NCBI RefSeq assembly: GCF_044324875.1
Contig: NZ_CP172185.1
Reading direction: 5' to 3' (one strand)
DNA: 64,000 nt
Origin: Escherichia coli
GTDB lineage: Bacteria > Pseudomonadota > Gammaproteobacteria > Enterobacterales > Enterobacteriaceae
Positions 47,981-48,045 of this stretch are shown in pieces; position 1 is the stretch's first letter, and each line of letters opens with the position of its first letter. The translations under genes were made by a program, and so were the position numbers. A model generated the notes under the pieces. The model saw only the letters and a list, made by a program, of their open reading frames with translations. It was not told the DNA's origin and made no database searches.

Positions 47981-48017
47981 CGGGGTACTGCATTTTTTTT
48001 GTAGTACCCCGTATAAT
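47981..48017 (+). terminator. elaB terminator hairpin overlapping a -10-like element for menF
   Basis: cggggtact-gcatttttttttgt-agtaccccg followed at once by tataat (48012-48017), 28 bp before the menF GTG start. Confidence 0.6.
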
Positions 48018-48045
48018 GTGAGGCTTTTAACAGGGAGAGGTCCGC

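Follow-up and report, generated by a model that had tools for sequence, protein, structure and literature searches.

The window analysed here, a 64,000-nucleotide stretch of Escherichia coli DNA, carries on its plus strand the junction between elaB and menF. The elaB coding sequence (47662–47967; 101 amino acids) encodes a tail-anchored inner-membrane stress protein and its stop codon ends at 47967. The menF coding sequence (48046–49341; 431 amino acids), the first gene of menFDHBCE, begins with GTG at 48046, leaving an intergenic region of 78 bp; both genes were assigned from the open reading frame list and the RefSeq annotation. A 601-bp query around the junction was matched in 5421 of 5426 complete E. 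coli genomes, with elaA, elaB and menF annotated beneath it in RefSeq. The 121 bp around the junction were 100% identical to K-12 MG1655, where elaA-elaB-menF lies on the minus strand and the K-12 coordinate (k) of a window position (w) is k = 2428689 - w.

Within the intergenic region, a CU-rich block, CCTCCCT (47970–47976), complementary to both GAGG at 48020–48023 and the menF Shine-Dalgarno (SD), lies 5' of a hairpin. The left arm of the hairpin, CGGGGTACTGCA (47981–47992), and its right arm, TGTAGTACCCCG (48000–48011), both defined by sequence, fold and conservation, enclose a loop of seven U (47993–47999; sequence and fold), so that the T-run is inside the loop and not 3' of the stem. 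Read as DNA, the left arm covers approximately -44 to -33 of the menF promoter (PmenF) and the right arm forms its spacer. The hexamer TATAAT (48012–48017) is the menF -10 element as DNA and, as RNA, the A/U-rich tail in which the elaB mRNA ends. The elaB 3' UTR extends to the mapped RNA 3' end (47968–48015; Term-seq and SMRT-Cappable-seq, coordinates converted), and the menF transcription start site (TSS) lies at 48025 (K-12 2380664; SMRT-Cappable-seq operon table). The resulting 21-nt menF 5' UTR, UUUUAACAGGGAGAGGUCCGC (48025–48045), carries the SD GGGAGAGG at 48033–48040. An earlier note on this DNA had described the stem arms CGGGGTACT (47981–47989) and AGTACCCCG (48003–48011), a T-run enclosed between them, and, 28 nt ahead of the menF GTG, a TATAAT abutting the right arm. 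The sequence check confirmed this layout: GCATTTTTTTTGT lies between the two arms, with eight T at 47993–48000, and TATAAT directly follows the right arm.

The predicted RNA hairpin begins 14 nt past the elaB stop codon and has a 12-bp stem (47981–47992 with 48000–48011) with one G-U pair, the U7 loop, and a folding energy of -20.9 kcal/mol; it is thus a stable, GC-rich stem-loop of the kind found in intrinsic terminators. The 91-nt region had a fold z-score of -3.5, and only 1 of 200 shuffled sequences folded equally well. In a sliding-window scan of 33-nt local folds, the hairpin ranked fourth in stability on the plus strand of the window, and three of the other folds in the top stability range belonged to a single repeated REP-like sequence. 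The hairpin is neither a chance feature nor a repeated extragenic element of the REP or BIME type; it occurs at a median of one place per genome across the 5421 E. coli genomes. An Rfam scan of 47000–49000 (E <= 10) returned only two chance-level snoRNA matches, both away from the hairpin. In Escherichia, the read-through RNA was predicted to form a larger fold (47963–48031; -31.0 kcal/mol), in which an outer helix, GUUAAAACCUCC paired with GUGAGGCUUUUAAC, surrounds the hairpin and TATAAT stays unpaired.

Elsewhere in the window, three near-identical palindromic units, GCCTGATGCGACGCTG[A/G]CGCGTCTTATCAGGCC, were found at 1581–1613, 1672–1704 and 1763–1795 with a spacing of 91 bp, and this array (1581–1795) looks like a REP/BIME-type element. 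The plus strand has its two most stable short hairpins at 27117–27149 and 44716–44748 (-24.6 and -24.5 kcal/mol, respectively), the latter consisting of a 15-nt inverted repeat with a 4-nt gap.

Two independent published methods place an RNA 3' end a few nucleotides past the stem, at window position 48015. In Term-seq data, the dominant 'primary' 3' end of elaB is at K-12 2380674 on the minus strand, and its three entries are in line with detection in each of the three growth conditions (Adams et al., 2021; PMC7815308). According to the printed flanking sequence, this position is the second A of TATAAT, with the end falling between TATA and AT, 4 nt past the last stem pair; bona fide terminators listed alongside it have similar distances (e.g., frdD, 5 nt). 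Two of its scores are 54,112 and 221,851 (PMC7815308), and the sizes of the tabs suggest that these correspond to LB OD 0.4 and LB OD 2.0. The score was thus approximately fourfold higher in the tab that is apparently LB OD 2.0. Within the 54-bp elaA-elaB spacer, CTATAGT (47622–47628) resembles a sigma-S-type -10 element with a C at -13, and may be a stationary-phase promoter of elaB itself.

SMRT-Cappable-seq recovered the same end, 2380674, for transcripts initiated at the elaA promoter (TSS 2381565), and labelled the site 'novelTTS' (Yan et al., 2018; PMC6131387). In M9 medium, 30 reads began at the elaA TSS; 10 stopped at 2380674 and 16 passed it, with no ends in the following 50 bp and a median read-through of 199 nt (PMC6131387). 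Accordingly, approximately 40% of the informative M9 reads stopped at the site and 16 of 26 passed. The operon table also contains a variant spanning elaA, elaB and menF (PMC6131387). Two terminator-like hairpins with T-rich tails (48111–48125 and 48245–48260) were found by the consensus scan in the first 215 nt of menF, and lie within the range where the elaAB read-through RNAs end (median 199 nt past 48015).

The menF TSS was mapped at 2380664 on the minus strand for both the menF-menD and the menF-menD-menH transcripts from capped 5'-triphosphate ends (Yan et al., 2018; PMC6131387). The position corresponds to window 48025, the eighth nucleotide past TATAAT and within the 6–9 nt expected of a sigma-70 promoter. 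This TSS comes from one dataset, SMRT-Cappable-seq. The reverse-strand convention of that dataset appears to be exact, given that its elaA TSS is an A with C at -1, 6 nt past TAGTAT. The menF call falls on a T and was therefore taken as accurate to 1–2 nt. The menF TSS lies at the start of a T-run (48025–48031; GG[C/T]TTTT[T]AAC) that is conserved across genera (alignment A2, columns 60–67). A pyrimidine start with a conserved T-run at +1 is unusual.

The -10 hexamer of this promoter is a perfect TATAAT (48012–48017). Among spacers of 15–19 bp, the best -35 candidate matched TTGACA at two of six positions, and the triplet upstream of TATAAT is CCG, so an extended -10 (TGn) is absent. The menF promoter thus appears to be driven by its -10 element. 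A consensus promoter scan of 47000–49000 returned no promoters, and a simple consensus terminator scan did not call the hairpin, because these scans required at least four of six matches in the -35 and a T-tail. Reporter fusions of PmenFDHBCE showed sdiA-dependent expression in Salmonella and Enterobacter cloacae, although the fragment boundaries are not given in the main text (Schwieters and Ahmer, 2024; PMC11619404). Such sdiA-dependent changes imply that the fusions were active. The context of the menF SD, ACAGGGAG (48030–48037), resembles the CsrA-binding consensus, RUACARGGAUGU.

The earlier note had proposed that elaB termination and men initiation are packed into approximately 40 bp, had asked for Term-seq and TSS data at the junction, and had named a menF start upstream of the hairpin, with read-through from elaB, as the observation that would speak against this. 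The published maps place the elaB transcript end (48015) and the menF start (48025) 10 nt apart, an even tighter arrangement than was claimed. The menF TSS is downstream of the hairpin, so the terminator-promoter reading is supported, and read-through from elaB coexists with it. The description of the hairpin as the elaB terminator is supported with caveats: a mapped 3' end coincides with it, but the lack of a 3' U-tract and the concurrent read-through leave it a putative intrinsic terminator in the strict sense.

The junction was compared among 47 elaB-menF junctions of species representatives across Enterobacterales. A perfect TATAAT was found 25–32 nt before the start codon in 36 of the 47 syntenic sequences and a 5/6 match in seven more; in Yokenella the hexamer is further upstream because of an insertion. 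TATAAT was kept in Cedecea, Atlantibacter, Franconibacter, Acerihabitans and relatives, whose spacers are otherwise unrelated. Thus the hexamer is conserved across Enterobacterales, and the abutting hairpin is confined to the core Enterobacteriaceae, where its sequence is conserved in 36 loci. These 36 loci (30 distinct sequences) share one architecture and include: Escherichia, Salmonella, Citrobacter, Enterobacter, Leclercia, Lelliottia, Kosakonia/Phytobacter, Pluralibacter, Trabulsiella, Yokenella, and others. From 5' to 3', the order is the CU block (CTCCCT), 4–6 nt, the hairpin (GGGTACTGC-loop-GCAGTACCCCG), TATAAT, GTGAGGTT, the T-run, the SD (AGGGAGAGG), and GTG, the last being invariant in alignment A2. 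The 7-bp arm cores were invariant or nearly so across the aligned loci and are therefore uninformative on pairing. The loop-proximal stem pairs were variable, with some compensatory double changes (columns 28/36: UG 11, AU 6, UA 2, CG 1).

In the distant genera, a separate canonical terminator lies upstream (a hairpin followed by T9 in Cedecea (L057) and in L011), approximately 15 nt from the same TATAAT. Since these loci carry a canonical terminator just upstream of the same hexamer, stopping after elaB and restarting for menF is a conserved logic. When positions 2833–2859 of L057 and 2834–2860 of L011 were aligned at TATAAT with window 47970–48000, the distances corresponded: the Cedecea terminator has its left arm where E. 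coli has the CU block, its right arm where E. coli has the G-run, and its U-tract where E. coli has the loop T-run. Going by this positional correspondence, one may speculate that the E. coli hairpin was built around an ancestral U-tract. In Yokenella regensburgei (L062, 2875–2895), the T-run and the SD of the menF 5' UTR are separated by an additional GC-rich hairpin, GAACCTGCCTCAGGCAGGTTC (-14.3 kcal/mol), with TTCGTTC after it; this hairpin may represent an attenuator or an inserted element.

The CU block is upstream of the menF TSS and is therefore present only in read-through RNA. Across genera, the block covaried with the menF SD. Cognate CU:SD duplexes averaged -14.5 kcal/mol versus -12.8 +/- 0.28 kcal/mol for non-cognate duplexes, and none of 5000 permutations was as good. 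With one representative per SD haplotype, the values were -16.9 versus -14.0 +/- 0.58, again with no permutation as good (0 of 20,000). Matched CU/SD variants were found in Salmonella (CCCTCCCT/AGGGAGGG), Phytobacter/Kosakonia (CCCCTCCC/GGGAGGGG), Pluralibacter (CTCCCCC/GGGGGAG), and Trabulsiella (AACCTCCC/GGGAGGTT). The covariation was seen between the positions of window 47970–47976 and 48032–48040, and in loci L008, L009, L037, L038, L040, L055, L062, and L070. Partition-function folding predicted a mean SD accessibility of 0.40 for promoter-initiated mRNA and of 0.23 for read-through RNA; with a mutated CU block the value was 0.35. These predictions suggest masking of the SD in read-through RNA of genera other than Escherichia, and not in E. 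coli. In Escherichia, the predicted CU:SD pairing probability was approximately zero because the CU block pairs with GAGGCUUUUAA instead; this pairing with the GTGAGG block past the -10 is the predicted one in Escherichia, and the E. coli CU:SD pair ranked 10th–11th of 15. The CU:SD pairing seems to have been lost or rewired in this genus. As a conserved partner of the CU block, the GTGAGG block was rejected, since it gave no cognate advantage (-3.97 versus -4.63).

A tentative reading of the wider architecture, to which we give a good deal less than even weight, is that a canonical terminator evolved into an insulator of two layers, combining a leaky stop with SD masking by the CU block, and that the arm cores could independently serve as an operator. 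Under such an arrangement, stress-induced elaB read-through RNA would not be translated into MenF, and promoter-initiated mRNA would be translated.

E. coli Rho-independent terminators consist of a GC-rich stem-loop followed by a U-tract of 7–8 nt. The elaB-menF hairpin does not have this canonical form: its T-run is in the loop and its tail is UAUAAUGU. A U-rich tract of approximately 7–8 nt 3' of the stem is absent (tail UAUAAUGUGAGGCUU, T-score 1.64), and the d'Aubenton-Carafa discriminant score was -22, whereas the canonical terminators found in L057 and L011 scored +24 and +26. The negative score and the missing U-tract fit the measured leakiness.

Taken together, the 37 bp at 47981–48017 would have two jobs on one strand, setting an RNA 3' end and serving as menF promoter DNA. 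The reading we lean towards, with moderate confidence, is weak hairpin-driven termination at 48015 within a terminator/promoter junction. The 12-bp hairpin would set the 3' end of the elaA-elaB transcripts, and presumably also of elaB-only transcripts, by weak, non-canonical termination in which UAUAAU takes the place of the U-tract as a weak RNA:DNA hybrid. The freed elaB RNA would then lose a few nucleotides by trimming, down to the base of the stem. Because the hairpin tail is poor, a sizeable fraction of polymerases would continue into menF. As DNA, the same bases would provide the upstream part, the spacer and the -10 of PmenF, which would fire at approximately 48025 and yield an mRNA whose 21-nt leader carries a strong SD. 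With read-through and its own promoter, menF would thus be transcribed from both. The published maps establish where the 3' end and the TSS lie, that read-through occurs, and roughly how much of it there is; active termination by the hairpin, as opposed to mere protection of the RNA, and the action of TATAAT as a weak-hybrid tract are what we infer.

Since the hairpin lacks a U-tract, the mapped end could partly or wholly reflect exonuclease trimming to a protective hairpin. Polymerases would then stop diffusely downstream, through Rho or otherwise, and 3'-5' exonucleases would trim the RNA back. Stable stem-loops without U-rich tails typify Rho termination downstream followed by exonuclease trimming (Dar and Sorek, 2018; PMC6061677), and the elaB end, with its negative classical score, fits this Rho-dependent trimmed-end class. 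The M9 reads that went past the site (16 of 26, median extension 199 nt) and a C/G ratio of 1.2–1.5 at 48075–48202, approximately the 90th percentile of the window, point the same way. Directly past the hairpin, however, the C/G ratio is 0.8–0.9 and the sequence is not C-rich, no reads end in the next 50 bp, and a true intrinsic terminator occupies the same site in related genera. Among the supplementary BCM files of Adams et al. (2021; PMC7815308) that the analysis covered, no Rho-termination region is listed for elaB or menF, but the adjacent menF promoter downstream confounds that assay. On this evidence, pure protection is the less probable account, though one with an appreciable chance of being right. 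The two processes are not mutually exclusive, and intermediate cases of termination and trimming have been discussed explicitly (Dar and Sorek, 2018; PMC6061677). Were the hairpin only protective, the promoter overlap would remain, and what is packed together would be RNA-end protection and initiation. A roadblock of RNA polymerase at PmenF was rejected by reasoning, as the stall would be expected approximately 15–20 nt or more above the upstream edge of the promoter and not at the -10. A terminator for antisense transcription was likewise rejected, the minus-strand RNA also having no U-tail beside the stem. At the level of initiation, the existence of read-through transcripts, including the elaA-elaB-menF variant, and the absence of a -35 element would be compatible with a fortuitous TATAAT and with menF expression essentially through read-through from the elaA and elaB promoters. 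This is very improbable: a 5'-triphosphate TSS lies 8 nt past the hexamer in two menF transcript variants, and 43 of 47 sequences keep the hexamer at a constant distance from the start, among them those of genera with a strong canonical terminator upstream.

To our knowledge, menaquinone synthesis has no known transcription factor besides the recently reported sdiA effects. The inverted repeat GGGTACTG...CAGTACCC could be a DNA operator for a dimeric regulator of menFDHBCE, beside or in place of its role as RNA. The palindrome is centred approximately 29 bp upstream of the TSS and spans the core promoter, and SdiA would be a candidate regulator at least in Enterobacter. In favor of an operator, the 7-bp arm cores are essentially invariant where loops and flanks have diverged, the TGC of the left arm is kept even without a conserved partner, and the GTAC cores are 15 nt apart in most unique sequences and 13–14 nt apart in a few (counted by eye). 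PmenFDHBCE activity was approximately 105-fold lower with sdiA in E. cloacae and 1.8–2.7-fold higher with sdiA in Salmonella, but the E. coli fusion was not sdiA-regulated (Schwieters and Ahmer, 2024; PMC11619404). Further against an operator, a review of SdiA names pefI-srgC as its sole known direct target, the palindrome is single-copy in E. coli genomes, and the transcript end at the base of the stem shows that the hairpin is formed, and is of importance, in the RNA. Being constrained both as hairpin and as promoter spacer could alone explain why the sequence is conserved. LexA and lux-type (LuxR-family) boxes have the form CTG-N10-CAG and TrpR boxes the form GNACT-N8-AGTNC. The CTG-N11-CAG and GTACT-N13-AGTAC of the repeat differ from these consensus sequences. 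The right half of the E. coli palindrome is TAGTA and not CAGTA. LexA, lux-type (including SdiA) and TrpR boxes were rejected because of this unfit spacing, the window and most genera having TACTG-N11-(C/T)AGTA. An operator role for the repeat is accordingly doubtful; the arm cores could serve as a putative operator for some regulator of menaquinone synthesis. The palindrome at 47981–48011 and the E. cloacae loci L065 and L068 offer a putative candidate site for the reported sdiA effect.

The literature search returned no paper that explicitly treats the elaB terminator, the menF promoter or the junction as such, and the only ChIP-exo paper naming menF had no bearing on the junction. Both mapped ends were already in public datasets, and in E. 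coli this is an ordinary, compact terminator/promoter junction. The interpretation of the earlier note is supported with the qualification that the stop is leaky and non-canonical and that read-through accompanies promoter-driven transcription. The start of the men operon is fixed at a -10-only promoter near K-12 2380664 with a 21-nt leader, and menF has a second input, read-through from the stress-induced elaAB unit. Because the last 40 bp after elaB overlap the menF promoter, the arrangement matters for deletion or tagging of elaB and for menaquinone engineering. The junction is a natural example of how a single sequence can be under constraint in two forms, RNA hairpin and promoter DNA, and of how a terminator can lose its U-tract yet stay in place. 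The E. coli junction itself is unsurprising; the predicted masking of the SD in read-through RNA of other genera is the more interesting lead.

Compared with known systems, the hairpin resembles E. coli intrinsic terminators in being a GC-rich stem-loop approximately 14 nt past the stop codon with a 3' end a few nucleotides after the stem. It differs from them in its T-run within the loop, its tail formed by the -10 hexamer UAUAAU, its leakiness and its negative score. Like the protective stem-loops of Dar and Sorek (2018; PMC6061677), it has no U-rich sequence after it and a precise 3' end at its foot. In contrast to their Rho-dependent ends, the sequence immediately downstream is not C-rich, and in place of an untranslated rut region it holds a promoter and a gene that is translated. 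As a promoter, the junction is like -10-dominated sigma-70 promoters in its perfect TATAAT, a TSS 8 nt downstream and the deep conservation of the hexamer. Unlike these, it has no TGn, and its -35 and spacer region is a conserved inverted repeat. In the fold-back inhibition of IS10 and IS50, reportedly described by Davis, Simons and Kleckner in 1985, transcripts from outside pair with the ribosome-binding site of the transposase and are not translated. The menF case differs in concerning a chromosomal biosynthetic operon and not a transposase, in being predicted from covariation and folding only, and in applying to genera other than E. coli. As in IS10 and IS50, the anti-SD is upstream of the TSS of the gene, such that only read-through RNA would be masked (Salmonella, Kosakonia/Phytobacter, Trabulsiella, Pluralibacter, and others). 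Additionally, the menF anti-SD adjoins a transcription stop, which would give two predicted layers of insulation.
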